64,000 nucleotides of DNA from Planctomycetota bacterium (GTDB taxonomy: Bacteria > Planctomycetota > B15-G4 > SIAN01): NCBI GenBank assembly GCA_031409275.1, contig JANNXA010000034.1:150120-214119 (forward strand), given 5' to 3'. The translations under genes and the position numbers were made by a program. Below are positions 3,133 to 21,850 of this stretch, piece by piece. How positions within the stretch are numbered: position 1 is the first letter of the stretch; every line of letters starts with the position of its first letter. The notes beneath the pieces were generated by a model. That model had not been told where the DNA came from. It saw nothing but the letters and a program-made list of their open reading frames with translations, and did no database searches.

Positions 3133-4444
<1,312 letters not shown>

Positions 4445-4552
4445 GGGGTGAGGACCTCGGCATCGATGTCGACCAATTCAGGCCGCAGGCCGAAATCGCC
4501 CGGGAGGGAAAGATCGGAATCCAAACTTTTTCTTTTTTTCGGAAGAAGCCTC

Positions 4553-4577
4553 AAACCAACTGGACGTTTAGGTCGTA
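4553..4577 (+). promoter_or_regulatory. Possible ECF-sigma promoter for the fasciclin gene
   Basis: AAAC-N17-CGTA in the AT-rich divergent intergenic region. Confidence 0.3.
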
Positions 4578-4664
4578 CTGTTGGACGAGTTGACCGTTTT
4601 AAGGGAACGCGAGCACCCGCAACTGCGGCCCAGCTCGCTTCAAGAACCACGGAGGATTCGTTCG

Positions 4665-5540
4665 ATGTTGAGCCTTCTCTCGTTTGCCTTCGCCGCAGCG
4701 CTCCCGACCACCGGTGGCACCGACATCGTCGACACCGCAGTCGGCGCCGGGAAGTTCAAGACGCTCGTCGCCGCCGTGCAGGCCGCGAAGCTCGTCGACA
4801 CGCTGAAGAGCGCCGGCCCGTTCACGGTGTTCGCGCCGAATGACGACGCGTTCGCCAAGCTCCCGGCCGGCACGGTCGAGATGCTGCTCAAGCCCGAGAA
4901 CCTCGCGAAGCTGCAGGGCGTCCTCGGCTACCACGTCGTCGCCGGCAAGTGGCTCGCGAAGGACGTCTCCACGATGACCGGCGCGGTGACCGTGAATGGT
5001 CAGCGCCTCGACTTCAAGATCGATGAAGGCAGCGTTCGCATCGATGGCGCCAAGGTGATCCAGGCCGACATCGAATGCAGCAACGGCGTGATCCACGTGA
5101 TCGACAGCGTCGTGATGCCGTCCGCGAAGAACATCGTCGAGACCGCCGCGGGCGCCGGCTCCTTCAAGACCCTGCTCGCTGCCGCGACGGCCGCCGGCCT
5201 CGCCGAGACGCTGGCCAAGGATGGGCCTTACACCGTCTTCGCGCCGACCGACGAAGCGTTCGCGAAGCTCCCCGCCGGCACGGTCGAGAACCTGCTCAAG
5301 CCGGAGAACAAGGACAAGCTCGTCTCCATCCTGAAGCTGCACGTCGTCAAGGGCCGCGTCTACAGCACCGAAGCGCTGAAAGCCGGCATGGCGACCAGCC
5401 TCTCGGCGGCCTCGCTCGCCATCGTCAAGGGTGAGAAGAGCGCGACCGTGAATGGCAGCGTCCTCCTCGCCACCGACATCGATGCTTCGAATGGCGTCAT
5501 CCACGTCATCGACACCGTGATCCTGCCCAAGGCGAACTGA
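4665..5540 (+). CDS. Secreted fasciclin (FAS1) protein, two domains
   Basis: Two copies of TVFAP(N/T)DxAF ... [11 protein letters not shown]; signal peptide; GGAGG RBS before ATG 4665. Confidence 0.93.
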
Positions 5541-5654
5541 TCTCAAGACCCTCTCGCGGGGCGGCGAACGGGACAGCGCCTTTGAGGCGCGCCGCGCGTC
5601 GCCCCGCTCTGTTTTGCCACCGCCGTGCTTACTGCGGTTTCTCAGGAGTTTCGA

Positions 5655-6224
5655 ATGCGTCGACTGGTTGCACTGGCGCTGGTGTTGGCGGGAGCGGCTG
5701 CCTGTCGCTCCGAGCGCGCGGCGCCGCCGGCCCTCGATGGCGCGACGTTCCCGTCCGTCACGTCCGAGGCGCTCGATGGCAAGCGCTGGAACCTGCCCGC
5801 CGATCTGGCGGGAGCGCCGGCCATCCTGCTGGTCGCGTTCGAGCAGGACGGCCAGTTCGACTGCGATCGCTGGCTGCTCGGCCTCGCCCAGGCAAAGACG
5901 CCGGTCAAGGTCCTCGAAGTGCCGACCATTCCCGGAATGGTCCCTGGCCTGTTCGCGGGCACCATCGACTCCGGCATGCGCAACGGCATCCCGTCGGAAG
6001 ATTGGGGCGTCGTCGTGACGCTCTATGGCGACGCCGCCCGACAGGTGTTCGATTTCACCGGCGGCGTCTCCGATCGCAACGCACGCGTACTGCTGCTCGA
6101 CGGTGAAGGGCGCGTGGCGTGGCATCACTCGCGCGGCTACTCGGCGCGATTGCTGGTCGACCTCGATGCGCGCGCGCGCGAACTCAGCGCGGTGCCGGTT
6201 CCGGAGGCGTCGCCGAAGCGTTGA
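5655..6224 (+). CDS. Thioredoxin-fold (ATP10-like) lipoprotein
   Basis: Lipobox-like AAAC; FPSV..EALDG...LPAD; VLLLDGEGRVAW; AGGAG RBS. Confidence 0.65.
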   Translation: MRRLVALALVLAGAAACRSERAAPPALDGATFPSVTSEALDGKRWNLPADLAGAPAILLVAFEQDGQFDCDRWLLGLAQAKTPVKVLEVPTIPGMVPGLFAGTIDSGMRNGIPSEDWGVVVTLYGDAARQVFDFTGGVSDRNARVLLLDGEGRVAWHHSRGYSARLLVDLDARARELSAVPVPEASPKR

Positions 6225-7680
6225 CGTGGCGCTCGGCGTAACGGCGAATCCCGGCGAGCATCCCGTTGAACACGATCGCGTGGAGCGGGACGACGGCGTA
6301 CCAGTAGGCGAGGCCCGCGAGGCCCTTCGGCCGGAAGCGCGCGGTCTGGATCAGCCGCGTGCCGGTGCCGGAGGGCTCGAGTTCGAAGGTCAGCGTCGCG
6401 ATCCCGGGCAGCTTCATCTCCGCGCGCAGTTCGAGGCGTTTGCCGTCTTCGAGTCCGGTGACGCGCCAGAAGTCGAGCGCCTCGCCGAAACCGACCGCGT
6501 CGGGATCCTTGCGCCGTCGTCGCAGGCCCGGTCCACCGACCAGCCGGTCGATCAGGCCGCGTGCACGCCACAGCAGATCGGCCGCGTAGTAGCCATGCCC
6601 GCCGCCGATCCGGACGACCGCGGCGAAGACCGCCGGCGCCGCCGCCGCCACGTCGCAGCTGCGGCGATCGACGAAGACGCGGCCGCCCGCCCAGTCGGGA
6701 TCGCCGGGGATTGCGCCAGCATCGCTCCACGCCGACTCAAGCCCTCCTGCGCGCTCCTTCGCCAACGCCTTCGCGATGGCGACGCGCACCGGCAGTCGCG
6801 CTCCCGGAAGCAGTTCCAGCGCGCGTGGATCGCGGCAGACCACGCGGTTGCGCAGCCCTTCGGCGAGCGGTCGCGCGATCGCGTGGTCGATCGGCGTGAC
6901 GAGGTGGATCCACAGCGAGGAGAGCCGCGGCGTGAGGACCGGCAGCGGCACGATGAGGCGCCGGCGCAACCCGAGTTCCTCCTGCATCACGTGCATCAGG
7001 TCGAGGTAGCTCAGCACGTCGGGGCCGCCGATGTCGAGCGTCGCGCCGATCGTGGCGGGCACGTCGAGGCAGCGGACCAACGCATCGAGGACGTCGGCGA
7101 CGGCGATCGGCTGCGATTCCGTGGTCACCCAGCGCGGGGTCACCATGACGGGCAGCCGCTCCACCAGGTAGCGCAGGATCTCGAACGACGCGCTGCCGGA
7201 GCCGAGGATCATCGCGGCGCGCAGGACGGTGAGCGGAACGCCGCCGCTCGCCAGAGCGGTCTCGACCTCGCGTCGCGAGGCGAGGTGTTCGGAGAGCCCA
7301 TCGCCGAGCTCGCCAAGGCCACCGAGGTAGATCAGGCGGCTGACGTTGGCGCGCTTCGCGGCCGCGGCGAACCCCGCTGCGAGGCGCTGGTCATGGCCGC
7401 GGAACTCGCGGCCCGCCGTCATCATCGAGTGGATCAGGTAGTAGGCCGCTTCGCAGCCCGCCATCGCCCGCGTCAACGCCGCTTCGTCGCCGACGTCGCA
7501 TTCGACGACGCGCAGTCGCGGATGGTGGATCCAGGTGCGCGCGCTGAGTTTGCGGGCATCGCGCGCGGCGCAGACCACCTCGTGCCCGGCGTCGAGCAGA
7601 CGTGGCACCAGGCGCCCACCGATGTAGCCCGTCGCGCCGGTGACGAAGAGGCGCCGGATGGGCTGGGCTGGATCGTTCAC
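6184..7680 (-). CDS. SDR family oxidoreductase with C-terminal DUF2867 (YbjT-like)
   Basis: VTGATGYIGG, GSGSASFE, LDFWRV, LRAEMKLPG; GTGA overlap with the upstream regulator. Confidence 0.88.
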   Translation of the reverse strand: MNDPAQPIRRLFVTGATGYIGGRLVPRLLDAGHEVVCAARDARKLSARTWIHHPRLRVVECDVGDEAALTRAMAGCEAAYYLIHSMMTAGREFRGHDQRLAAGFAAAAKRANVSRLIYLGGLGELGDGLSEHLASRREVETALASGGVPLTVLRAAMILGSGSASFEILRYLVERLPVMVTPRWVTTESQPIAVADVLDALVRCLDVPATIGATLDIGGPDVLSYLDLMHVMQEELGLRRRLIVPLPVLTPRLSSLWIHLVTPIDHAIARPLAEGLRNRVVCRDPRALELLPGARLPVRVAIAKALAKERAGGLESAWSDAGAIPGDPDWAGGRVFVDRRSCDVAAAAPAVFAAVVRIGGGHGYYAADLLWRARGLIDRLVGGPGLRRRRKDPDAVGFGEALDFWRVTGLEDGKRLELRAEMKLPGIATLTFELEPSGTGTRLIQTARFRPKGLAGLAYWYAVVPLHAIVFNGMLAGIRRYAERHVNASATPPEPAPR

Positions 7681-8564
7681 GCGTGCCGATCGGAGCTGGC
7701 TCGCGCGCGGTCCTGCAGCGAGGCGAGCGAATCCTCGATCACGACCCGCTGCGGATCGAGCGGCAATCGGGCGTCGCGCAGCTGGCCGCTGACGCGTCCA
7801 CCGATCACCAGCAACGTGCGCTCTTCCGCGAGCGCCGCGGCAAGCTCCTCGACGTAGGAGCGCGCCGCGCCGCGCGGCTCGTCGGAGGAGATCGAGATCC
7901 AGACCATCGCCGGTTGCCAGCGCTTCGTCGCCGCGACGACGGCGGCGACGGGCAAGCGTGCCCCGAGGTTGATCGTGCGCCAGCCCGCCTGCTGCAGCGT
8001 CATCGACGCCAGTTGGCTCGGGATCTGGTAGGGATCCCATTCGGGCGACCCGCCGATCGCCAGCGGCCCATCGCTCACCGGCAGCAGTCGAGTGATCTCG
8101 TGCAGCGCATGCAGGCACGCTTCCGTCGCCGCGTGCTCGATGACGATCCCGTCCGGTCCGTGGTGCCACAGCTCGCCGAGGTGCTCGAGCGCCGGTTGCA
8201 GGACGTCGCGCGCGAGCGTGACGAGCTCCACCCCATCGACGAAGGCATGCAGCAGCACGGCGTGCGCTTCCGCGAGCTGCCCGTCGACGAGGAAGCGGGC
8301 GAGCGTTCGCGCGTGTTCATGAGTCGGGAGCCGGGCGAGCTGTCGACCGCGTGCCGGCAGGCCGAGCAGTTCCGGACGTACGACTTCGTGGTGCTGTTTC
8401 TGGATGAAACGAATCGCTTCCGGCAGACGGATGCGGCGATGGCCGCCGCTCGTGCGAACGAGCTTCAGCTGTCCGGAGTCGGCCCACCGCTTCACCGATG
8501 ATTCGGAAACGCCGATCGCCGCGCCGAGGTCGCGCGGGCTCAGGAAGACCGGCAGGGAGGTCAT
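7677..8564 (-). CDS. MerR-type HTH, cobalamin-binding regulator (CarH/LitR-like)
   Basis: HTH GVSESSVKRW..RTSGGHRR; W-x9-EH motif (WHHGPDGIVIEH); Rossmann-like B12 domain; alternative start at 8600. Confidence 0.8.
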   Translation of the reverse strand: MTSLPVFLSPRDLGAAIGVSESSVKRWADSGQLKLVRTSGGHRRIRLPEAIRFIQKQHHEVVRPELLGLPARGRQLARLPTHEHARTLARFLVDGQLAEAHAVLLHAFVDGVELVTLARDVLQPALEHLGELWHHGPDGIVIEHAATEACLHALHEITRLLPVSDGPLAIGGSPEWDPYQIPSQLASMTLQQAGWRTINLGARLPVAAVVAATKRWQPAMVWISISSDEPRGAARSYVEELAAALAEERTLLVIGGRVSGQLRDARLPLDPQRVVIEDSLASLQDRARASSDRHA

Positions 8565-8947
8565 CGAACCAGGAGGGGAGGACGGTGAGGGATCGACCAT
8601 GGATCTTCTCGGCGGGAGGAGCTGCGCGCGGGTTTCCGGGACGTGTCGGAATCTGAACGATTTGGTTGTTTTATAGGAGGAGTTGCTGTGCCGCCAGTGG
8701 GCAGGCGCGCGAAATCGTGAAGCGAAGTGATGACGATGACGAGGTCTCCCGCGCGCCACTCCGCGGCGGCGCTCGGCAGCCGCCGCCCGATCTTCAGCCC
8801 CTCGAACTCGGCAGGTGAGAGAGCGTCCGGAGTGGCGCCGGGCCGCCGCGTCTCCACCCCTGCAACCGTCGCGTGGATGTTTTTGGGGCCGCTACAGTCC
8901 GCACCTCACGACGCCGTGGTGCCGTTGGCGGCCAAGAGGAGGATGCG

Positions 8948-11053
8948 ATGGTCCAAGCCTGGTTCGCCGCGTTGCTGGCGGCTCCGTTCGTCACGCTGAC
9001 GCCGGAGGTCCCGAAGGTCGGCGCCGACGTGCCTCCATTCCGGATGGCCGACCAGGATGGCCGCCTGATCAGCGCCGCGTCGCTGCAGGGCAAGCGCTAT
9101 CTGCTGGCCTTCTATCCCAAGGATTTCACCCCTGGCTGAACCAAGGAGCTCTCGGACCTGCGGGACAGGTTCGCCGAGTTCAAGTCGCGCGGCGTGATGG
9201 TCTTCGGTGTGGCGCTCGATGGGGTCGAGTCGCATCGCAAGTTCTGCGACTCGCTTGCCTTGCCCTTCCAGCTCCTCACCGACGAGGAGGGGCGCGCGTC
9301 GCGCGACTTCGGGGTCTTCCTCGAAGCGATGGGTGGCATCGCGCGTCGCACCATGTTCCTGGTCGGTGCCGGCGGCAAGCTCGACTACGTCGACGAGGCC
9401 TATGAACTGAAGAGCGACGCCGATTGGGAGGCGCTGCTCGCCGCGCTTGGGCCGCGGCCGGAAGTGCCAGGCGCGACCGCACTCATCCCCGAGAAACTCG
9501 ACGGCGAGGCAATCCGCAAGGATCTCCAGAAGCTGGCGTCGGACGAGTTCGAGGGGCGTGGCGTCGGCACGCGAGCCGAGCGGTTCACGGTCGACTACCT
9601 CGTCGAGCAGCTGACGGCGGCTGGCTTCGCGCCCGGCAACGGCCCGAGCTTCGTGCAGCAGGTGCCGCTGGTCAGCGTCCAGAAGGCGAAGTCGCCGCAA
9701 CTCGAACTTGGCAAGGTGCCGCAGCGCTTTCTCGATGACTTCGTGGTGATGACGCGGCGGCAGAAGGAAGCGGCGCTGAAGGCCAGCGGCGAGCTCGTCT
9801 TCGTCGGCTACGGCTGCAGTGCGCCCGAGTTCCGTTGGGACGACTACGCCGGACTCGATGTGAAAGGCAAGGTCGTGGTCTGCCTGGTCAACGATCCGCC
9901 GCTCGCCGATGGCCGCTTCGGCGGCAAGGCGATGACCTACTACGGACGCTGGAACTACAAGTTCGAGGAGGCGGCGCGCCGTGGTGCCGCCGGTTGCCTG
10001 ATCGTGCACGAGACCGAGCCGGCCGCCTATCCGTGGGAGGTCGTTCGCAACAGCTGGGGCGGCGAGCAGTTCGATTTCGCGCGCGCCGATGGCGGCGCTT
10101 CGCGCTGCGCCTTCGAAGGCTGGATCACGCGCGAGGCCGCGGTCGATCTCTTCCGTCGCAGCGGCGGTGGACTCGATTTCGATGCGGTGCACGCCGCGGC
10201 CGGCCAGGACGGCTTCCGTCCGGTCGCGCTTGGCCTCGACGCCAGCGTCCAGATCGAGCAGAAGGTCGCACCGATCGTGTCGCGCAACGTGCTCGGCGTG
10301 CTGCCGGGCTGCGATCCGCGCCAGAGCGGCGAATTCGTGCTCTTCTGCGCGCACTGGGACCACTTCGGCATCGATCTGACCAAGGTCGGCGACCAGATCC
10401 TGAACGGAGCGGTCGACAACGCGAGCGGTTGCGCTGGCCTGCTGGAGCTGGCGCGCGCTCTGGGTCGTGCGCCGCGTCCAGGCCGCTCGGTGGCCGTGCT
10501 CTTCGTCACCGCCGAGGAGCGCGGTCTGCTCGGCTCGCAGTGGTACGCCGAACATCCGCTGATCCCGCTCGAGCGGACGCTCGCCGCGATCAACCTCGAC
10601 GGGATCAACGTGTGGGGGCGCACGCGCGACCTCGCCGTCATCGGGATGGGGCAGTCCGATCTCGAAGAGCGGCTCGGCGCGGCGATCGTCGCGCAGGGGC
10701 GAACGCTTGTGGCCGACCCGGAGCCCGAGAAGGGCTCCTACTTCCGCTCCGACCAGCTGAGCTTCGCCAAGAAGGGCGTGCCGGCGCTCTATGTGAAGCA
10801 GGGCGTCGACTTCATCGGGCAAGGAGCCGAGTACGGCCTCGAGATCCGCCGCAGCTACACCGCAGAGCGTTATCACAAGCCGGGCGATGAGTTCGATCCG
10901 AGCTGGGTGTTCGATGGCGCAGTCGAGGACCTTTCGGCGCTCCTCTTCGTGGCGCGCGGCGTGTTGGCCAGCGAGCAGTGGCCGCAATGGAACGCAACCT
11001 CGGAGTTCAAGGCGCTGCGGCCGCAGGCGGGGCCCGCGGCAACCGGCCGCTGA
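8948..11053 (+). CDS. Selenocysteine-containing BCP/PrxQ peroxiredoxin fused to PA-domain M28 peptidase (UGA 9137-9139 = Sec64)
   Basis: FYPKDFTPG-UGA-TKE places UGA at the peroxidatic Cys; frame continues into M28 motifs AHWDH, GAVDNASG, AEERGLLGS, RSD, YH; GAGGAGG RBS. Confidence 0.85.
9151..9178 (+). other. Bacterial SECIS-like hairpin
   Basis: CTCGG-ACCTG-[CGGGA]-CAGGT-tcg-CCGAG; loop starts 21 nt after UGA and has G at position 2. Confidence 0.75.
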
Positions 11054-12893: not shown

Positions 12894-14576
12894 TCACTTC
12901 AGCTTCACGTAGTCGACGTACGCCACCATCATCTCGTCGCTGGTCTGCTCGCCGACGTGGACCCGCTGCGAGGGGTCGGGGTTGCGCGGGTTCGCGGCGG
13001 AGTTGTCGTAGGCGGCGTTGAGGACGAGCTCGTCGCCTGGTTCGAGGCGCAGCGGATCGCGCAACTCGTAGGTGTGCTGCCAGCCGAAGTCGTAGCGCGG
13101 CACGTCGAGCAGGATGCGCCGCGTGCCGTCGACTCGCGCAAGCTCGATGCGGAAGGCGTGGCCGCGCCAATGCATGTGAGGCATCAGTGCCGTGACCAGG
13201 ATCGGCTCGCGGAACGGTTCGGTGCGCGTGAAGCGGGTGTCGGCTGCGAACGGCTCGAGCTCGACCTTCGGATTGGCGATCGTCCAGTTGGCGACTTCGC
13301 GCGTCACCGGAGCCCGCGCGAAGCGAAGCGCCATGCGCGTGCGATCGGTGGTCGCCTTGCCATTGGGCGTGTAGTGCAGTTGGAAGAGGAATCGCGTGCC
13401 ACGTGCGACACGTTTGGCCATTCCGTCCGCGAGCTCGATCGGCCGTCCGCCCGGCGCGCTGCCGGCGAAAAGGAGGTTCGGGTTCAAGACGCGCTGGTTC
13501 AGGCCGGGCGGCAGCAGGAAGACGCCGATGTGGTGGGTCACCTCCCGATTGCCGGGTCGCACCTCGATCGCCTGCACCAGGCGATCCTCGGTGAAGTGCG
13601 GGTCGACTGGCACGTAGCGGTAGGGGACGACCCCCTCCGCCGGGATCGGCTGCGGCGCGGGCAGCTCGACGACGACGTCGGGCGTGCCGATCGACCACTC
13701 GGCGCTGTCGAAGCGCGGTGCCGGTGGCGCGTCGCTCGCGTCGCCCAGCGCGGCGCCGCTCGCATTCCAGTCGTGCAGCGTCCGCTTCTCCGTGTCGGTG
13801 AGGCTGCGCTCGTTCGTGAAGTGCCCGTAACGCGGATCGGCATGCCATGGCGGCATGCGGCCATCGGCGACCACCTCGGCGATCTGCGGCGCCCAACCTC
13901 GCGTCTCCGCGCCATCGAGGAAGCTCATCGGCCCGATGTCGCCAGGATGGTGGCACTCGACGCAGCGCGTCCACAGGATCGGCGCGACGTCGCGGAAGAA
14001 CGTCGGTGCGGCGGGCGCGGCGGGGCGCAGCTTCGTCAACGCGACACCCGCCGACGTGCCGTCGTCGTCGGACGCAGCGGAGCTGGCGATCGGCTGCGCC
14101 ACCAACACCGCCGCGATCGCATCGGCCAGCGGTTGCGCGCTGGCGAGGTCGAATCGCGCGAGCTCGACGAACTCGCGGTCGAGCAGCAGCGCGGTCGCGG
14201 TCGTCGTCACTCCAAGCCGCTCGCACACCGCCTGCAGCGGATCGCGCAGCAGCGGGAAGTCGAGCTTCGCAGAGTGCGCGAAGGCCTGCAGCTCCAGCGC
14301 GTCGTCCGCCGCCGCCGGATCGATCGCGAGGAAGCGCACGCCGCGCGGCGCCTGCGCGCGCGCAAGCTCGCCCATCGTCGGTGCCAGCGTTCGCGTCGCC
14401 GCGCAATCGAGCGCCGCGATCCACAGCACCGTGCAGCGGCGCGCCGCGTCCTCGGCGACGAGATGGACGCGCTGGCCATCGCTCGCTTCGAGCAGGAAGT
14501 CGCTCAGCGGTCGCGCGTCGGGGGCGGCGAGCGACAGCGTGCCCAGCGCGAGGAGCGCAGCCAGCGGACGTTTCAT
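12894..14576 (-). CDS. Secreted redoxin + cytochrome c + copper monooxygenase-like (PHM/DBH-type) protein
   Basis: Signal peptide; AhpC/TSA-like N-domain; CVECH; MPPWHAD; HH, LHY, PHMH and DEMM motifs. Confidence 0.8.
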   Translation of the reverse strand: MKRPLAALLALGTLSLAAPDARPLSDFLLEASDGQRVHLVAEDAARRCTVLWIAALDCAATRTLAPTMGELARAQAPRGVRFLAIDPAAADDALELQAFAHSAKLDFPLLRDPLQAVCERLGVTTTATALLLDREFVELARFDLASAQPLADAIAAVLVAQPIASSAASDDDGTSAGVALTKLRPAAPAAPTFFRDVAPILWTRCVECHHPGDIGPMSFLDGAETRGWAPQIAEVVADGRMPPWHADPRYGHFTNERSLTDTEKRTLHDWNASGAALGDASDAPPAPRFDSAEWSIGTPDVVVELPAPQPIPAEGVVPYRYVPVDPHFTEDRLVQAIEVRPGNREVTHHIGVFLLPPGLNQRVLNPNLLFAGSAPGGRPIELADGMAKRVARGTRFLFQLHYTPNGKATTDRTRMALRFARAPVTREVANWTIANPKVELEPFAADTRFTRTEPFREPILVTALMPHMHWRGHAFRIELARVDGTRRILLDVPRYDFGWQHTYELRDPLRLEPGDELVLNAAYDNSAANPRNPDPSQRVHVGEQTSDEMMVAYVDYVKLK

Positions 14577-14580
14577 CGCG

Positions 14581-17500
14581 TCACTTCGCTTCCCATTGCA
14601 GGCGCGGTCGCGGCCGAGCTTCGGGCAGTTGCTGCGCCATGGTGCGCGCATCGAAGAGTCGGCCGTTCGCACAGGTGAGCTCGATCGAATCGCTGTTTTC
14701 GAGCCGCTCGAGCGGGTTCTTTGCCATCACCACGAAGTCGGCGAGCTTGCCCTGGTCGAGCGAGCCGAGCTCTCCGTCGAGGCCGAGGTACCAGGCGCCG
14801 TAGTGGGTCGCGCAGCGGATCGCCTCCAGCGGCGAAAGACCGCCCTGCCCCAGCATCCACAGCTCCCAGTGGGCGCCGAGGCCCTGCAGCTGGCCGTGCG
14901 CGCCGAGCTGCAGATGGCCGCCGGCGCGCAGGATCTTCGCGCACGCCTGGGCGACCTTGACGTGCTGGAAGTCGTCATCGAACGCGAAGACGTCGCGTCG
15001 GCGCGACTTCGCCTCGAGCCAGCCGGGCGGCGAGAGCGAGAGGAGCGGCTGCTTCTCGAAGACGCGGTCGTGCTGGTACCACCAGTACTCGCCGTTCAGG
15101 CCGCCGTAGGTGACGATCAGCGTCGGCGTGATGCCGGTGCCCGATTGGCCGAAGAGGTTGGCGACGTCGGCGTAGATCGGAGCCACCGGCAGGTTGTGCT
15201 CGACGCCAGTGTGGCCGTCGAGGCACATGGTGAGGTTGTGCGCCAGCAGCGAGCCGCCCTCGGGCACCACCAGCATCTGCTCTTCGCGAGCGGCCGCGAC
15301 GACCCACTGGCGCTGGTTGCGACGCGGCTGGTTGTAGCTCTTCACGCTGAAGGCGCCGACCGCCTTCAGCCGCTTCAAGTGGTGGCGCGCGTCGTCGAGC
15401 GAGTCGATCTCCGCCTTGTTCGGGTTCTTCGCGCCATAGAGGATGAATCCGGTCGAGTCGACGCGCGGGCCGACCATGCGACCACTCTTGACGAGCTCTG
15501 ATTGCGCGAAGACGAGCTCCGTCGGCGCCGAAGGATCGTGCGTCGTGGTGACGCCATAGGCGAGGTTGACCACGTATTCCCACGGCTGCGTCGGCTGCAC
15601 GTCGAGCGCGTTGTAGTGCAGGTGCGCGTGGACATCGATGATCCCCGGCATCACCGTCTTGCCGCGGCCGTCGACGACGGTCGTGCCGGCGGGGACCGTG
15701 GTGGTCGCGCTCGGACCGAGGCCGACGATGTGGTTGCCCTCGACGATCAGCGTTCCCTCCTCGATCACCTCGTCGCCGCGCATCGTGATGAGGCGCGCGC
15801 CAACGAGGGCGAAGCGACCGCTCGGTGCGTCGCCCGGTGCGCTGGCGTCGAGCGCCACGAGGCTCGCATCGGGGCGCACCCCTTGCGCATTGAACTCGGC
15901 GGGCTTGTCGGCGGGCTTCGTCTCCGCGGGCGGTGTCGTCGCCGGCGGGATCGCGGCGGCGGCCTTCGCCGCTTCCGGTGCGAAGAGCGGCGCGACTTCC
16001 TGCACGGCGAACTGCGGCCCGAGCGCCCACGTGAGGTACTTGCTGTCGGCGCTCCAGGTCGGCCAGCTCCCGCCGATCTCGGTGAGCTTCTTCACGGGCA
16101 TCGGGGCGCCGTTGCGGCCGATGGTCAGCGCGCGCCCGACGGCCGAAGGGAACGGCGCGACGTAGATTTGATGCTGCTCTTTCCAGGCGACCCACTTCAG
16201 GTCGGGTGAAGGTGCGATCTCCTCGGCATCCTCGTTGGTGGCGAGCGTCAGCTTCTCGCGTCCATCGAGCGTCGCGCGCACCAGCACCGTGCCGGCGCCC
16301 CCATCCTCGAACCACATCAACTGCTGGCCATCGGGGGCGAAGAAGAGGCGCGGCATGCGCCGGTTGGTGCCGCGATTGCTGGTCGTCGTGAGTTCGTGCG
16401 GTGGAGCGCCGGCGCTGGCATCGACGACGAGCCACGCGATGCGCAGCGAATCTCCCGCGAGCGATTCACCGCGCGCCGTCGCATCGCTGCCGAGCAGGAA
16501 TGCGATCTCGTTGCCAATCGGCGAGAACGCCGGATTGGCGATGATCCCCGGCTGCTCGTAGCGGACGCTCGGCGCGCCGCCGCCGTCGCTCGGCACCAGC
16601 CAGAGCTTCCCGCCGACGCCATTCTCGAAGGTCGTGAAGGCGAGCACGCGGCCGTCGGCCGAGAGCGCCGGCGCGTAGGCGAGCGCGCCAGGCGCGGTGG
16701 CGATCGCCGTCGCCGCACCGCCCGCGCGCGGCTGCTTCCAGATCTGTCCGAGCGCCTGGAACCAGATCGTCGCGCCGTCGGGCGACAGGAGCGGCCAGCG
16801 GATCATCTTCGCGTGGACGGTCGGCTCGAAGACGGGCCGCGCGAAACGCAGCGCTTCATGCACTTTGTGGGTGGTCTTCGCGTGGAAGGGAATCCACGTC
16901 GTGCGGCCGCTCGTCGCGCCCTCCGCGGCATCGATGCGCGCGAGCTTGCCGCCCGCCGTCACCACGATCGCCGAGCTGTCGGGCAGCCAGCAGTAGCCGG
17001 GAAAGGTGCCGTGCGTGGACCACGTCTCCATCGTGTCGTGGTCGAGCCCATCGAAGAGAAGGCGCTCGCGGCCCGATGCGAGGTCGCGCACGAAGAGCGC
17101 GGTCTTCAGTCCCGCGCGGCGTACCAGCGCCACCGACTTGCCGTCGGGGGACGGACGTGGCCGGCAGGCGCCGCCGCTGCCATCGCTGAAGGGCTCGCGC
17201 TTGCCGTTGGCGCGATCGATGCGCGAAACCGCGTAGATCCCCTGGTAGGGGTTCTTGTTGTAGGCGAAGTCGCCGGCGTGGCTGAAGTAGAGCCAGCGCC
17301 CGTCCTTGCTGATGGCCGGCTCGTTCACGTCCGCGGTGTTCGAGCTCTTCTCGGTCAGCTGGACCCCGGCGCCGCCGCCGTTCGCCGCATACATCCAGAC
17401 CTCGCCGGCGCCGAGCGACCGGGTGTCGGTGAAGTGCTTGCGCGCCAGGATCCACTCGCCGTCGGGCATCCACTCGGGGCAATGGACGAGACGGAAGTCC

Positions 17501-17985
17501 TCCTTGGTCACCTGGCGCAGGTCGCTGCCGTCGCGCGCGCAGCTCCAGATGTTGTCGGCGCCGCCGCGATCGCTGACGAAGGCGATGCGCGCGCCGCTCG
17601 GGCTGAAGCGTGGCTGCCACTCCCACGCCGCGCCGCCCAGCAGGAGTGTCGCCTCGCCGCCGGCGATCGGCAGCGTCCAGACGTCGCCCAGCAGATCGAA
17701 CAGCAGCGTCTGCCCGTCGGGGCTGACGTCGACCTGCATCCAGGTCCCCTCGTCGGTGTCGATGGTGACGTCGCGCGTCGGTCCGAACGGCACCGTGACA
17801 TCCCAGTCGGTGGGGGCGGCGCGCGGCGGATCGAGCAGCGGCCCGGTCGGGGCGCGGCCGCCCGCGCAGCACTCGTCGCCGGTCGGCGGCAGCGCGGCCG
17901 GCAATGCGGTTAAGGGCGCCGCGGCGGCGAGGCCGATGAGCGGCAAGAGAGTGCACGCGAAACGCGACGGGAGGTGGTGTGCCAT
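14581..17985 (-). CDS. Secreted amidohydrolase with TolB/PD40 beta-propeller repeats
   Basis: DVSPDG/FSPSG repeats; PGIIDVHAH, GVTTTHDP, GAHGQ, GKLADFV. Confidence 0.88.
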   Translation of the reverse strand: MAHHLPSRFACTLLPLIGLAAAAPLTALPAALPPTGDECCAGGRAPTGPLLDPPRAAPTDWDVTVPFGPTRDVTIDTDEGTWMQVDVSPDGQTLLFDLLGDVWTLPIAGGEATLLLGGAAWEWQPRFSPSGARIAFVSDRGGADNIWSCARDGSDLRQVTKEDFRLVHCPEWMPDGEWILARKHFTDTRSLGAGEVWMYAANGGGAGVQLTEKSSNTADVNEPAISKDGRWLYFSHAGDFAYNKNPYQGIYAVSRIDRANGKREPFSDGSGGACRPRPSPDGKSVALVRRAGLKTALFVRDLASGRERLLFDGLDHDTMETWSTHGTFPGYCWLPDSSAIVVTAGGKLARIDAAEGATSGRTTWIPFHAKTTHKVHEALRFARPVFEPTVHAKMIRWPLLSPDGATIWFQALGQIWKQPRAGGAATAIATAPGALAYAPALSADGRVLAFTTFENGVGGKLWLVPSDGGGAPSVRYEQPGIIANPAFSPIGNEIAFLLGSDATARGESLAGDSLRIAWLVVDASAGAPPHELTTTSNRGTNRRMPRLFFAPDGQQLMWFEDGGAGTVLVRATLDGREKLTLATNEDAEEIAPSPDLKWVAWKEQHQIYVAPFPSAVGRALTIGRNGAPMPVKKLTEIGGSWPTWSADSKYLTWALGPQFAVQEVAPLFAPEAAKAAAAIPPATTPPAETKPADKPAEFNAQGVRPDASLVALDASAPGDAPSGRFALVGARLITMRGDEVIEEGTLIVEGNHIVGLGPSATTTVPAGTTVVDGRGKTVMPGIIDVHAHLHYNALDVQPTQPWEYVVNLAYGVTTTHDPSAPTELVFAQSELVKSGRMVGPRVDSTGFILYGAKNPNKAEIDSLDDARHHLKRLKAVGAFSVKSYNQPRRNQRQWVVAAAREEQMLVVPEGGSLLAHNLTMCLDGHTGVEHNLPVAPIYADVANLFGQSGTGITPTLIVTYGGLNGEYWWYQHDRVFEKQPLLSLSPPGWLEAKSRRRDVFAFDDDFQHVKVAQACAKILRAGGHLQLGAHGQLQGLGAHWELWMLGQGGLSPLEAIRCATHYGAWYLGLDGELGSLDQGKLADFVVMAKNPLERLENSDSIELTCANGRLFDARTMAQQLPEARPRPRLQWEAK

Positions 17986-18049
17986 AGGGCGACCATGTTG
18001 CCGCGTCGTGCGCGTGCGGGAAGGGTATGGCCGAGTGGCAGGAGGCGCG

Positions 18050-19369
18050 ATGAGGTCCGATCGTCGATCGTTCGCGCGCGGCCTCGGCATCGTGGGGGGG
18101 CTGCTGCTCGCTCCGGCGCCAACGCAGGCTTCCGGCGATGGCGCGCGCGCCGCCAAGGGCCAGTTCCTCGGCCCCGCCACCTGCGACTCGACCCACTGCC
18201 ATGGCGCCGCACGACCCGCCGATGGCCGCGTCCGACAGGATGAGTTCGCGACCTGGTTCGCGCGCGACGACCATCGCCGCGCATGGGAAGCGCTCTCGGC
18301 GCCGCTCGGTCGCGCGATGGGCGAGCGGCTCGGGATCGACGCGACGAAGGCGGCCGAGTGTCTCGTCTGCCACGCCGGATCGGAGAGCGCCGGCGCCAAC
18401 GTCGCCGACTTCGGCGTCAGCTGCGAGGCGTGCCACGGCGCGGCCTCGGGCTGGTACGGGACGCACTTCCAACGAGGATTCGATCGCGCGACGGCGGTTC
18501 GCGAGCTCGGCCTCAACGACACGTTGGACCCGGTGGCTCTCGCCGCGACCTGCGTGCGTTGCCACGTCGGCGATGCGACGCACGTCGTCGACCATCGGTT
18601 GATCGCGGCGGGCCATCCCGACCTCGCGTTCGAAGCGGGCTCCTTCCTGCTCTCGATGAGTCCCCATTGGCGGCAGCGGGGCGCGACGAGCCGCGACTGG
18701 TTCACTCGCGCGGCGCTGGCGGGCCCGCTGGTGGCGCTCGAAGCGCAGCTCGAGAAGCTCGCGCGCGAGGCCGCCGGATCGCTCGACTTCTCGAGCCGCG
18801 AATGCTCCTCCTGCCATCACGACCTCGCGGACGGCGGATGGGATCAGCTACGCGAGTGGCGGCTTGCGCATGGTCTTTCGGTCCCGATCGGCCGACCGCT
18901 CCTCGACGCGTCGCGCTTCGTCACCGCGGGTGCTGTGGCGAGCGCGGTCGATGCGACTCGCGGCGCCGCGCTGCGCGAAACGCTTCACCACATGGAGCAG
19001 CTCGCCAACGCGCAACCGTTCGACGGCGCGGCCTTCACCGGCGCGGTCGAGCTTGCCGGCCAGCAGGTGCAGCCACTCTTCGACCTGTTGCAGGCGCGCA
19101 CCGAAGCGGAGTCGCTGGCGCGCGAGGTCGTGACCGCGCTCTCACGCGAGGGCGATCGCCTCGCCGGCCACGGCATGAAGGCCGCGGAGCAGGCCGCGCA
19201 GCTGATCCACTCACTGCAGACGACGTTCGATGAAGCGAGCTGGAACGTCGCGCCGGGCGGTGCCGCTGCGGCGATCCGCGCGCGCCTGCTGGCGCCGCTC
19301 ACGAGGCCGGCAGAGTTCCGGCCGGCCGACTTCGCACGCGAGTGGAAAGCGACGACCGAGCGGGAGTGA
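18050..19369 (+). CDS. Multiheme c-type cytochrome (c554-like)
   Basis: CDSTHCH, CLVCH, CEACH, CVRCH, CSSCH; signal peptide; GGAGG RBS. Confidence 0.85.
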   Translation: MRSDRRSFARGLGIVGGLLLAPAPTQASGDGARAAKGQFLGPATCDSTHCHGAARPADGRVRQDEFATWFARDDHRRAWEALSAPLGRAMGERLGIDATKAAECLVCHAGSESAGANVADFGVSCEACHGAASGWYGTHFQRGFDRATAVRELGLNDTLDPVALAATCVRCHVGDATHVVDHRLIAAGHPDLAFEAGSFLLSMSPHWRQRGATSRDWFTRAALAGPLVALEAQLEKLAREAAGSLDFSSRECSSCHHDLADGGWDQLREWRLAHGLSVPIGRPLLDASRFVTAGAVASAVDATRGAALRETLHHMEQLANAQPFDGAAFTGAVELAGQQVQPLFDLLQARTEAESLAREVVTALSREGDRLAGHGMKAAEQAAQLIHSLQTTFDEASWNVAPGGAAAAIRARLLAPLTRPAEFRPADFAREWKATTERE

Positions 19370-20163: not shown

Positions 20164-21850
20164 CCCGAATAATTCACGAGCCATGAAACGCGAAAGCCCT
20201 CGGTGCGTACGAATCGCCTACCAGAGCTGATTCGAGGCAATCGAGGGGCTTTCAGCGTGTGCGACGATAACGAGCAGGGTGTTCTCTTCGCCAGTGGGTT
20301 GTCGCGGCGGATCGAGGTGCAGTTCGACGAGCCGGATACGACGTCGGATGGCGGTGCGGTGCTGCTGGCGCAGGTGGACCGCTCGCTCGGTCTGACGTCT
20401 TCTCTCGCGCGGGCGGTCCGCGAATGGCGGAGCGACTCCCGCATCGAGCATTCGCTCGAGTCGCTGGTGCGCCAGCGCGTGTTCGGCATCGCCTGCGGCT
20501 ACGCCGACTGCAACGACTCGGCGCGGCTGCGGCACGATCCGATGCAGCAGGAGCTGGCCGGCACGGCGGAGACTCACCTCGCCTCGCAGCCGACGCTGTC
20601 GCGCTTCGAGCGGCAGGTGTCGCGCGGGTCGCTGCTGCGGATGGGCGCGACGCTGACGGACTCGGTGATCGAGCGCCTGAAGAAGCGTCATCCTCGGGCG
20701 CGGCGGATCACGCTCGACCTCGACAGCACGGTCGATCCGACACACGGTCGCCAGCAGCTCTCGCTCTTCCACGGCAAGTACGGCACGTGGTGCTACCTGC
20801 CGCAGCTGTGCTTCGCGACGATCGACGGCGATCCGGAGCAGTACCTGCTGGCGGCGCTGCTGCGACCGGGGACGGCGCACGAGGTCGATGGCGGGCTGTG
20901 GCTGATCCGGCGGATGGTCGAGCGGCTGCGCGCCGCCTTCCCGATGGCGAAGGTGCGCGTGCGGCTCGATGCCGGATTTTCGGGTCCGGAGCTCTTCGCT
21001 CTGCTGAAGGAGCTCAAGGTCGAGTACGTGGTGTCGATGGCGGGGAACCCTGTACTCGCTCGCCGATCGGCGAAGCTCGTCGAATTCGCCTGGGAGCTGT
21101 CGGCGATCACGGGCCAGTCGGCGCGCTGCTACGGCGAGACGCGATACGCCGCGCGCAGCTGGAAGGGCGAGGCGCGGCGAGTGGTCTTCAAGGCGGAAGT
21201 GACGCGCGAGGGCGACAAGCCCGCGCGTGAGAATCCCCGCTACGTCGTCACGAACCTCCGCCGCGGCTCGCCGAAGTCGGTGTACGAGACGTACTGCCAG
21301 CGCGGCGATGTCGAGAACCGGATCAAGGAGCTGAAGGACGATCTTTCGATCGACCGCACCAGCTGCTCGAGCTTCGCCGCCAACCAGCTGCGGGTGCTGC
21401 TGACGGCGGCGGCGTACGCGCTCTATCAGGCGCTGCGCAGCGAGCTCGCACAGCGGGGCGAGGCGCGGGCGCAGGTCGGCACGATGCGGCTGCAGCTGAT
21501 CAAGATCGGCGCACGCGTCGTGCGCTCGGTGAGGCGCGTCGTGCTCCACCTTGCCGCGCAGCATCCTTGGCGCGACGCTTGGACAAGGCTCGCGCTGAGG
21601 CTCGGCGCGGTCCCGATCGCCACTCCGGCCTGATCGACGCCGACGCCGAGCGCGACGAACGGTGCCAAGAGCGGAGATGCTCCGTCCAGACCATGCGACG
21701 GAGCATGAAAACGGCTGTCGAAGCCTGCCTCAACCGCCCGAAAAGCAGCTCCGCGAGCAGGTCGACGCTGAACGCGCCGACGAAATCGCAACTAGGCGAC
21801 GCAGAGGGTGTCGACGGTGCCGGACGACTCGCGCTCATGAATAGGTCAGG
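20164..21850 (+). mobile_element. IS1380-family insertion sequence (1687 bp), CTAG duplication
   Basis: IRL CCCGAATAATTCACGAGC vs reverse-complemented IRR CCTGACCTATTCATGAGC (13/18); CTAG at 20160-20163 and 21851-21854. Confidence 0.9.
20257..21633 (+). CDS. IS1380-family DDE transposase
   Basis: TSDGGAVLL, LASQPTLSRFE, LDLDST, RLDAGF, YCQRGDVENRIKELK. Confidence 0.93.
   Translation: MCDDNEQGVLFASGLSRRIEVQFDEPDTTSDGGAVLLAQVDRSLGLTSSLARAVREWRSDSRIEHSLESLVRQRVFGIACGYADCNDSARLRHDPMQQELAGTAETHLASQPTLSRFERQVSRGSLLRMGATLTDSVIERLKKRHPRARRITLDLDSTVDPTHGRQQLSLFHGKYGTWCYLPQLCFATIDGDPEQYLLAALLRPGTAHEVDGGLWLIRRMVERLRAAFPMAKVRVRLDAGFSGPELFALLKELKVEYVVSMAGNPVLARRSAKLVEFAWELSAITGQSARCYGETRYAARSWKGEARRVVFKAEVTREGDKPARENPRYVVTNLRRGSPKSVYETYCQRGDVENRIKELKDDLSIDRTSCSSFAANQLRVLLTAAAYALYQALRSELAQRGEARAQVGTMRLQLIKIGARVVRSVRRVVLHLAAQHPWRDAWTRLALRLGAVPIATPA

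Follow-up and report, generated by a model that had tools for sequence, protein, structure and literature searches.

Bacterial peroxiredoxins with selenocysteine (Sec) are already described (PF00578; PMC13188914, in part), and are characterized by a PxxxTxxU site, an in-frame UGA and a selenocysteine insertion sequence (SECIS) hairpin within the coding region. Caulobacter PprX, a BCP/PrxQ-type peroxiredoxin with a leader of ~20 residues and a distant resolving cysteine, is a stand-alone Cys enzyme that is reduced via the ScsB–TlpA pathway (PMC3322552, in part). The gene analysed here lies at 8948–11053 on the forward strand (+) of a 64,000-nucleotide stretch of DNA from a Planctomycetota bacterium (contig JANNXA010000034.1; the whole stretch is referred to as the window). 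It shares all three hallmarks of the Sec-peroxiredoxins, and continues beyond the peroxiredoxin into a metallopeptidase of the M28 family with an inserted protease-associated (PA) domain. Our best explanation, to which we assign a probability of roughly 60%, is that its product comprises two autonomous enzymes, a peroxiredoxin and a peptidase, tethered on one selenium-dependent exported chain.

Reading of the in-frame TGA

Under translation table 11 the gene is split into two open reading frames, 8873–9139 and 9194–11053. As the preliminary description of this DNA had claimed, these lie in the same frame, and the sole interruption in the 701 codons between ATG 8948 and the stop codon (TGA 11051–11053) is the TGA at 9137–9139 (+). 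Reading this TGA as Sec (U) gives a Sec-peroxiredoxin/PA-M28 peptidase fusion of 701 residues, with U64, the likely peroxidatic residue, within FYPKDFTPG-U-TKE. Single contigs from two sequencing runs that are possible sources of the window DNA (X1 and X2) match 8700–10042/10044 with zero differences and span both the TGA and the linker between the two halves, the region whose confirmation had been called for; one contig from a further run (X4) covers 8997–9460, crossing the TGA. Together with the recurrence of the fusion in same-genus genomes and in metagenome loci, these contigs rule out an assembly artefact.

The Sec machinery that such a reading needs is present in the source genome (G000; 5.6 Mb, 69% GC, 93% complete; G, L and P numbers denote the genomes, loci and database proteins compared): SelA, SelB, SelD and the tRNA-Sec encoded by selC (anticodon TCA) are all above curated cut-offs, and the selD gene itself contains a TGA. 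The TGA at codon 64 recurs in ten fused loci, which are kin and not ten independent events, with TGC in its place in the fused locus L157. Crude ratios of non-synonymous to synonymous substitution rates, calculated over six full-length TGA genes, are 0.36 and 0.43 for the parts upstream and downstream of the TGA, and 0.38 and 0.36 for the linker and the peptidase, respectively.

A predicted bacterial SECIS hairpin follows at 9146–9181 (+), with an 8-bp upper stem (9153–9160/9166–9173), a 5-nt loop (CGGGA, 9161–9165) and a folding energy of −19.5 kcal/mol. The loop and its position 21 nt past the TGA agree with the preliminary description, whereas the span of 9151–9178 given there does not. The hairpin lies within every limit of the bacterial SECIS model, namely a loop of 3–9 nt, an upper stem of 4–16 bp, a G in loop positions 1–2, a distance of 16–37 nt from the UGA and a minimum free energy ≤ −7.5 (PMC13188914, in part). 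Compared with dinucleotide shuffles, its energy is not beyond chance (25/200 fold as well). Among synonymous recodings of the same peptide, 6/1000 fold as well as the native sequence; across the TGA loci this figure is 0–26/1000 in eight of ten, and in the TGC locus L157 it is 580/1000. Codons +6 to +10 after the TGA read GAC CTG CG(G/T) GAC AGG in all ten TGA loci. AGG, the codon at U+10, is rare, encoding 1.4% of Arg genome-wide and 4/391 elsewhere in the fusion genes. Synonymous identity peaks at codons +5 to +14, with the top value among 371 such stretches (0.98; median, 0.75). Function of the hairpin as a SECIS element under codon-level selection is therefore supported. Because this adds to the presence of the Sec machinery, the conservation of the TGA and the existence of a TGC counterpart, read-through is supported as well, and the product of the fusion gene is almost certainly a selenoprotein.

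Two enzyme modules, a leader and candidate redox partners

Numbered from ATG 8948, Pfam assigns AhpC-TSA to residues 24–147 (E = 1e-31), PA to 280–357 (E = 3e-5) and Peptidase_M28 to 447–654 (E = 1e-41), and the full-length chain, modelled with AlphaFold from a ten-row alignment, has two folded parts joined by a linker (mean predicted local distance difference test (pLDDT) score 74; predicted template modelling (TM) score 0.63). The uninterrupted passage from a peroxiredoxin into a peptidase with its metal ligands, noticed at the outset from the translation, is thus borne out by Pfam and by seven invariant residues of the peptidase. In the peroxiredoxin domain (9008–9448, +), P57, T61, U64 and R134 make up the complete catalytic set (PxxxTxxU plus Arg) on a thioredoxin-like fold, modelled with a pLDDT of 93.6; the best Foldseek matches are BCP/PrxQ and AhpE structures, at TM scores of 0.81–0.88. 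The FYPKDxTPG and SHxKF signatures are PrxQ-like, and we refer to the domain as such, but AhpE structures are also among the best matches by sequence and fold. All NCBIfam models score below their cut-offs, the best (PRK09437) at 86.7 bits against 140.

The CxxxxC resolving arrangement was not found in the fusion peroxiredoxin. The preliminary description had made the same observation and proposed the cysteine of HRKFC instead, and this residue, C100 (9245–9247, +; SHRKFC), remains the predicted resolving cysteine: it lies at U64+36, inside the predicted helix 3 (residues 93–103). Resolving cysteines of this helix-3 type occur in ~6% of PrxQ proteins (PMC4749874, in part). C+36 is present in all ten TGA fusions and in L157 and is missing from the Cys-containing proteins P0004–P0006, and none of the 78 unrelated BCP loci listed carries both C+5 and C+36. 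A strict pairing of Sec with a resolving cysteine can be ruled out, since L157 has TGC with C+36 and locus L159 has TGA without it.

The second module, an M28 co-catalytic metallopeptidase with an inserted PA domain, extends over 9503–11017 (+). Its seven catalytic residues, comprising five metal ligands, a Glu as general base and a Tyr (H469, D490, E523, E524, D551, Y642 and H643), are invariant in 11/11 fused sequences that cover them, and its model matches best, by Foldseek, the structures 2EK8, 8ACR and 3IIB (E = 1e-25 to 1e-19; 18–20% identity). The module is probably a di-zinc exopeptidase. Five other M28-like genes are found in G000, none with a TGA.

Residues 1–20 (8948–9007, +) form a hydrophobic leader, a signal peptide predicted from hydropathy. 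Its best nine-residue Kyte–Doolittle mean is 2.24, compared with −0.11 to 0.77 in six leaderless BCP genes of the family, which include the second TGA gene of G000. A hydrophobic leader is present on the fused loci (for L022 and L023, which were scored from an inner ATG, the leader was identified in the sequence itself), and leaders of the same style occur in G000 on fasciclin, TlpA-like and FG-GAP genes. Export of the fusion protein to the envelope is therefore likely. Of the exported, redox-coupled peptidase of 701 residues proposed in the preliminary description, the length, the Sec read-through and the probable export hold up; the redox coupling is not supported, as the analysis turned up no sign of it and the peptidase persists in relatives without the peroxiredoxin.

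Several other in-frame TGA genes of G000 encode potential partners. A DsbD-family gene (C51, −; TGA at 106506) has U-I-N-C (U-x-x-C) in its last domain, and this TGA is retained in 7/8 family genomes. Three leader-bearing W-U-GPC genes are TlpA-like, the one scanned being ResA/TlpA-like, and TGA-containing genes for MsrBA, a leaderless BCP and a SelL-like redox protein are also present (the three TlpA-like, MsrBA, BCP and SelL-like genes are at C47:+5887, C16:+170423, C7:−86341, C37:+62433, C45:+88346 and C27:−33213). This set suggests a candidate selenium-based envelope redox relay, which, we infer, could feed the peroxiredoxin of the fusion. Further candidates for TGA read-through in G000 comprise FG-GAP-repeat-like proteins (DL-U-SFW, DT-U-STY and PTG-U-C) and two thioredoxin-like proteins (LGCV-U-NNG and ESC-U-GSG), located at C14:−295797, C34:−64177, C30:+17689, C43:+63697 and C23:−25248; three of the four scanned gave no NCBIfam match, and the C14 protein gave weak TlpA/DsbE-like matches.

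Spread, history and competing explanations

Among 40 relatives searched, the full fusion with a single TGA is found in all four same-genus genomes (71–81% identity). A pattern scan of metagenome contigs yielded eight loci, comprising six TGA fusions (L156, L158, L160, L161, L162 and L163), the TGC fusion L157 and a stand-alone TGA peroxiredoxin (L159); L162 duplicates a sequence already counted, L156, L160 and L161 run off their contigs, and the frame of L163 stops 264 codons past the TGA. Residues 15–175, used as a protein query, returned 15 matches, 10 with M28. Three of these (P0004–P0006) are full-length with Cys at the protein level, and the remaining M28-bearing matches start after the TGA, six (P0003 and P0007–P0011) being truncated just there and one starting still later. 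P0011 is annotated as from a Planctomycetes bacterium, and the automatic JGI names of P0005 and P0006 already mention both domains. The architecture that had been suggested as a search target thus exists in both TGA and Cys versions. No further fusion was found in 42 genomes of the order, among the 17 other best-matching peroxiredoxin loci read in 401 sampled genomes of the phylum, or, in a weak search, among proteins of 1233–3520 residues. When 1.84 billion representatives were searched by profile, a peroxiredoxin was missing from 149 of the top 150 matches, the exception being the fusion's own cluster; 7 of 12 long M28 relatives scanned bear other, unrelated domains, although these are single representatives in which artefacts are possible.

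Sister leader-peroxiredoxins occur in other contexts. L159 and L186 stand alone, both with TGA; L159, which has no resolving cysteine, is directly upstream of di-haem cytochrome c peroxidase-like and SCO1/SenC genes (3600–7090 for the group). Members of family f59 (L175, L178, L183, L185 and L189; four with Cys, one with TGA) have a second cysteine at +6 and are joined to a domain of ~170 residues for which there was no Pfam match and only NTF2-like Atlas leads scoring below 0.9. P0012 and P0013 are an independent fusion, between a leader-bearing Cys BCP with C+36 and an AstE/AspA-like metallo-hydrolase domain.

The linker between the two halves (9449–9502, +) is Pro-rich and variable in length, the Cys forms having ~15 residues fewer than the longest TGA forms, and its pLDDT falls below 50 at residues 171–180. 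The fusions group together in trees of both halves (M28, 100/100; peroxiredoxin, SH-like approximate likelihood-ratio test (SH-aLRT) 94). In the M28 tree (20 rows, with approximately unbiased (AU) tests), G005 and G007 carry unfused genes that are sister to the Cys fusion P0006 (100/99), and a clade of fused genes only is rejected (p-AU = 2.7e-64). Both unfused genes keep the neighbours seen at fused loci (a BlaI-type repressor upstream and DUF1579 downstream), that of G005 retains a linker-like remnant, and SelA is still encoded in both genomes. Because of this nesting, the rejected fused-only clade, the shared neighbours and the linker remnant, we conclude that the peroxiredoxin was lost secondarily in G005 and G007. 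In the best trees the Cys forms branch from among the TGA forms, but the AU test does not reject a clade of TGA forms alone (p-AU = 0.196). Sec as the ancestral state at this locus, which the TGA in the sister genes L159 and L186 also favours, is thus likelier but unproven.

In the favoured reading of two tethered but independent enzymes, a leader-bearing peroxiredoxin module was likely joined ahead of an M28 gene. SelB and tRNA-Sec, guided by the hairpin, would insert Sec at codon 64, and the predicted leader would direct the chain to the cell envelope. There, U64, positioned by P57, T61 and R134, would reduce H2O2 or organic hydroperoxides and would be resolved by C100 to an intramolecular selenylsulfide, as PrxQ chemistry suggests; re-reduction would come from the exported TlpA-like thioredoxins or the DsbD-like carrier, both with TGA at UxxC sites, by analogy with the ScsB–TlpA–PprX pathway of Caulobacter. 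The PA-M28 module would act as an ordinary exopeptidase, likely in peptide scavenging or envelope turnover, and a by-product of the fusion would be that the peptidase is made only when Sec is inserted. Termination at UGA 64 leaves a 63-residue piece, so the supply of peptidase would follow selenium. In this lineage such dependence would follow logically, although it is not kept across the clade, which includes Cys and peroxiredoxin-less relatives. For fdhF of Treponema primitia, translational coupling is reported to place transcription under the control of selenium (PMC3892789, in part). Independence of the two enzymes is favoured because the linker is variable and modelled with low confidence, the closest relatives outside the fusions are peptidases that stand alone, and the peroxiredoxin was lost in two nested genomes, and also because sister peroxiredoxins stand alone or carry another domain and M28 relatives carry unrelated domains.

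Several observations count against this reading. Sec decoding, export and the peroxidase and peptidase activities are all deduced from sequence. In two of the ten TGA loci the recoding test is unexceptional (126 and 128/1000), and two-sided covariation was found in 0/14 pairs of the hairpin, the stem being nearly invariant over nine distinct rows. The fused peptidases contain 3–9 Cys per 500 residues compared with a median of 1 in 138 outside relatives, and C290 is present in 14/14 fused and 0/148 outside sequences, an enrichment that could reflect thiol-linked coupling or a cytoplasmic location. Retention of the fusion across a clade whose members are only 56–80% identical also suggests some benefit of the join itself. 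It is conceivable, if doubtful, that the tethered peroxiredoxin shields its own Cys-rich metal peptidase from peroxide, by local scavenging or removal of sulfenic acids and without any switch. The long retention of the fusion and the Cys enrichment, which includes C467 and C495 close in sequence to the ligands H469 and D490 (in 6 and 9 of 11 fused sequences), would fit this; yet the unfused peptidases of G005 and G007 retain the cysteines of the clade (eight each), and two stand-alone M28 paralogs of G000 (L010 and L014) are as Cys-rich (1.3–1.4% Cys) without any peroxiredoxin. Cys enrichment as a hallmark of fusion is weakened by the same genes. Oxidation of U64 might instead be relayed to the peptidase, through a mixed selenylsulfide with C290 or C387 or through gating by the PA domain, such that peroxide turns proteolysis on or off. 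C290 and C387 (the latter in 11/12 fused sequences) do lie within or next to the PA insert, and PaAP is gated by PA-domain movement (PMC11313473, in part), but the same cysteines survive loss of the peroxiredoxin, the intramolecular resolving cysteine of all TGA forms would compete with a relay, and the linker varies by ~15 residues, leaving such a switch distinctly improbable. The fullest version of coupling, a selenium-gated, peroxide-responsive envelope peptidase in which an all-selenium DsbD–TlpA relay recharges a Sec-peroxiredoxin that controls or preserves the peptidase via C290, C387 and C495, seems unlikely; if true, it would be the first selenoenzyme wired to a protease in the bacterial envelope.

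Other explanations concern how the chain is made, cut or located. An exported precursor could be cleaved in the exposed linker into free peroxiredoxin and free peptidase, the fusion sharing only a promoter and a signal peptide. The variable linker with its low pLDDT would permit this, and PaAP is an example of a secreted M28 enzyme that undergoes proteolytic processing (PMC11313473, in part). The linker alignment, on the other hand, has no visible conserved cleavage motif. Pro-rich linkers are, in addition, usually resistant to cleavage, and we regard this route as improbable. Termination at the TGA, with the peptidase translated from GTG 9194 or ATG 9197 as gene callers assume, would account for the truncated database products P0003 and P0007–P0011, and Met is present at the internal site in nine of ten TGA loci; however, L160 has CGG there, no Shine–Dalgarno sequence precedes ATG 9197, and the linker offers no Met. 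The internal product would, moreover, be missing the leader and half the peroxiredoxin fold, purifying selection is the same ahead of the TGA as beyond it, and full-length Cys counterparts exist, so that separate translation, which the preliminary description had named as a possible refutation, is hardly credible. Equally remote is a cytoplasmic fusion with a degenerate leader, recycled by cytoplasmic thioredoxin: the leader is short and without basic residues and the Cys content of the peptidase exceeds that of outside M28 relatives, but the hydrophobic leader on the fused loci is absent from the six leaderless BCP genes and matches in style those of the fasciclin, TlpA-like and FG-GAP genes.

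Neighbouring genes and comparison with known systems

The fusion gene is preceded by a Shine–Dalgarno sequence (GAGGAGG, 8936–8942, +), 5 nt upstream of ATG 8948, and by TACAGT (8893–8898, +), the −10-like hexamer of a likely promoter. In upstream regions compared by eye, TACAGT or TACAAT occurs 30–65 nt before the start in L020–L026, L157, L158 and L161 and was not seen in L156 and L160; a scan for sigma-70 promoters and for terminators yielded neither a full promoter nor a terminator. A 3′–5′ exonuclease gene (PF00929; 11071–11670, +) begins 17 nt past the fusion stop, is also downstream in same-genus relatives and is likely co-transcribed. A divergent BlaI-type repressor (PF03965), absent upstream of the fusion in the window, precedes it in L021, L023–L026, L157, L158, L160 and L161, and in loci that extend far enough an M56 sensor comes next. 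A (T/G)ACA-AA-YGTA palindrome lies 120–220 nt before the peptidase start in 9/9 loci with the repressor and 0/4 without it (L020, L022, L156 and L159); it presumably resembles BlaI operators and adjoins the repressor's own start, which probably indicates autoregulation.

On the other side of the fusion, the window contains a divergent CarH/LitR-like regulator (HTH_17 and two B12-binding domains; 7677–8759, −), an NAD-binding/DUF2867 gene (6184–8169, −) and a double fasciclin gene (4581–5540, +), a neighbourhood that we take to resemble B12 light-response clusters. Further downstream are a protein with a leader in which an AhpC-TSA-like domain is joined to a copper type II monooxygenase C-terminal domain (12894–14672, −), a protein with several CxxCH motifs (17910–19369, +), a PD40-repeat amidohydrolase (14581–18705, −) and a DDE_Tnp_1_4 transposase (20203–21633, +).

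The architecture is one that gene callers split in two. It suggests that Planctomycetota have an exported Sec-peroxiredoxin module, used alone or with varied cargo domains, as well as a pathway for envelope peroxide made up of selenoproteins (DsbD-like, TlpA-like, peroxiredoxin and MsrBA). Its reach is limited to a small lineage known from assemblies alone, within which one locus provides a natural series (Sec with a resolving cysteine, Cys with and without it, and peroxiredoxin lost) that could serve to separate the contributions of Sec and of fusion. In agreement with the statement that the fusion was not known as characterized, no paper on a peroxiredoxin–M28 fusion was found in full-text searches of the literature; selenoprotein databases and subscription papers may list such genes as plain peroxiredoxins.

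Compared with the known Sec-peroxiredoxins, the fusion adds a leader and a further 530 peptidase residues, and the word 'peptidase' is absent from the main text of PMC13188914. With PprX it shares a PrxQ-like domain, a leader and a distant cysteine, the predicted resolving residue, and DsbD-family and TlpA-like genes accompany the fusion in the genome; the fusion differs in having Sec, in being fused, and in that its probable partners themselves carry TGA. Xanthomonas campestris PrxQ/BCP, of the helix-3 resolving type (the 5IIZ series and 3GKK–3GKN), matches the fold at TM scores of 0.81–0.83, and its C48S and C84S mutants mark the same 36-residue spacing as U64–C100, C48 and C84 being, we assume, the catalytic residues. 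That enzyme is, however, cytoplasmic, Cys-containing, single-domain and only 28–29% identical to the fusion domain, and M. tuberculosis AhpE fits the model as well or better (TM 0.86–0.88). The peptidase shares its fold with the PA-M28 aminopeptidases PaAP of P. aeruginosa (8ACR), Aneurinibacillus AM-1 (2EK8) and Shewanella amazonensis 3IIB, and its ligand set equals H296, D308, E340, E341, D369, Y466 and H467 of PaAP (PMC11313473, in part), yet identity to these three is 18–20% and none carries a peroxiredoxin. Although both halves belong to well-known families, the combination of a predicted Sec-peroxiredoxin with an M28 peptidase appears to be a new architecture.

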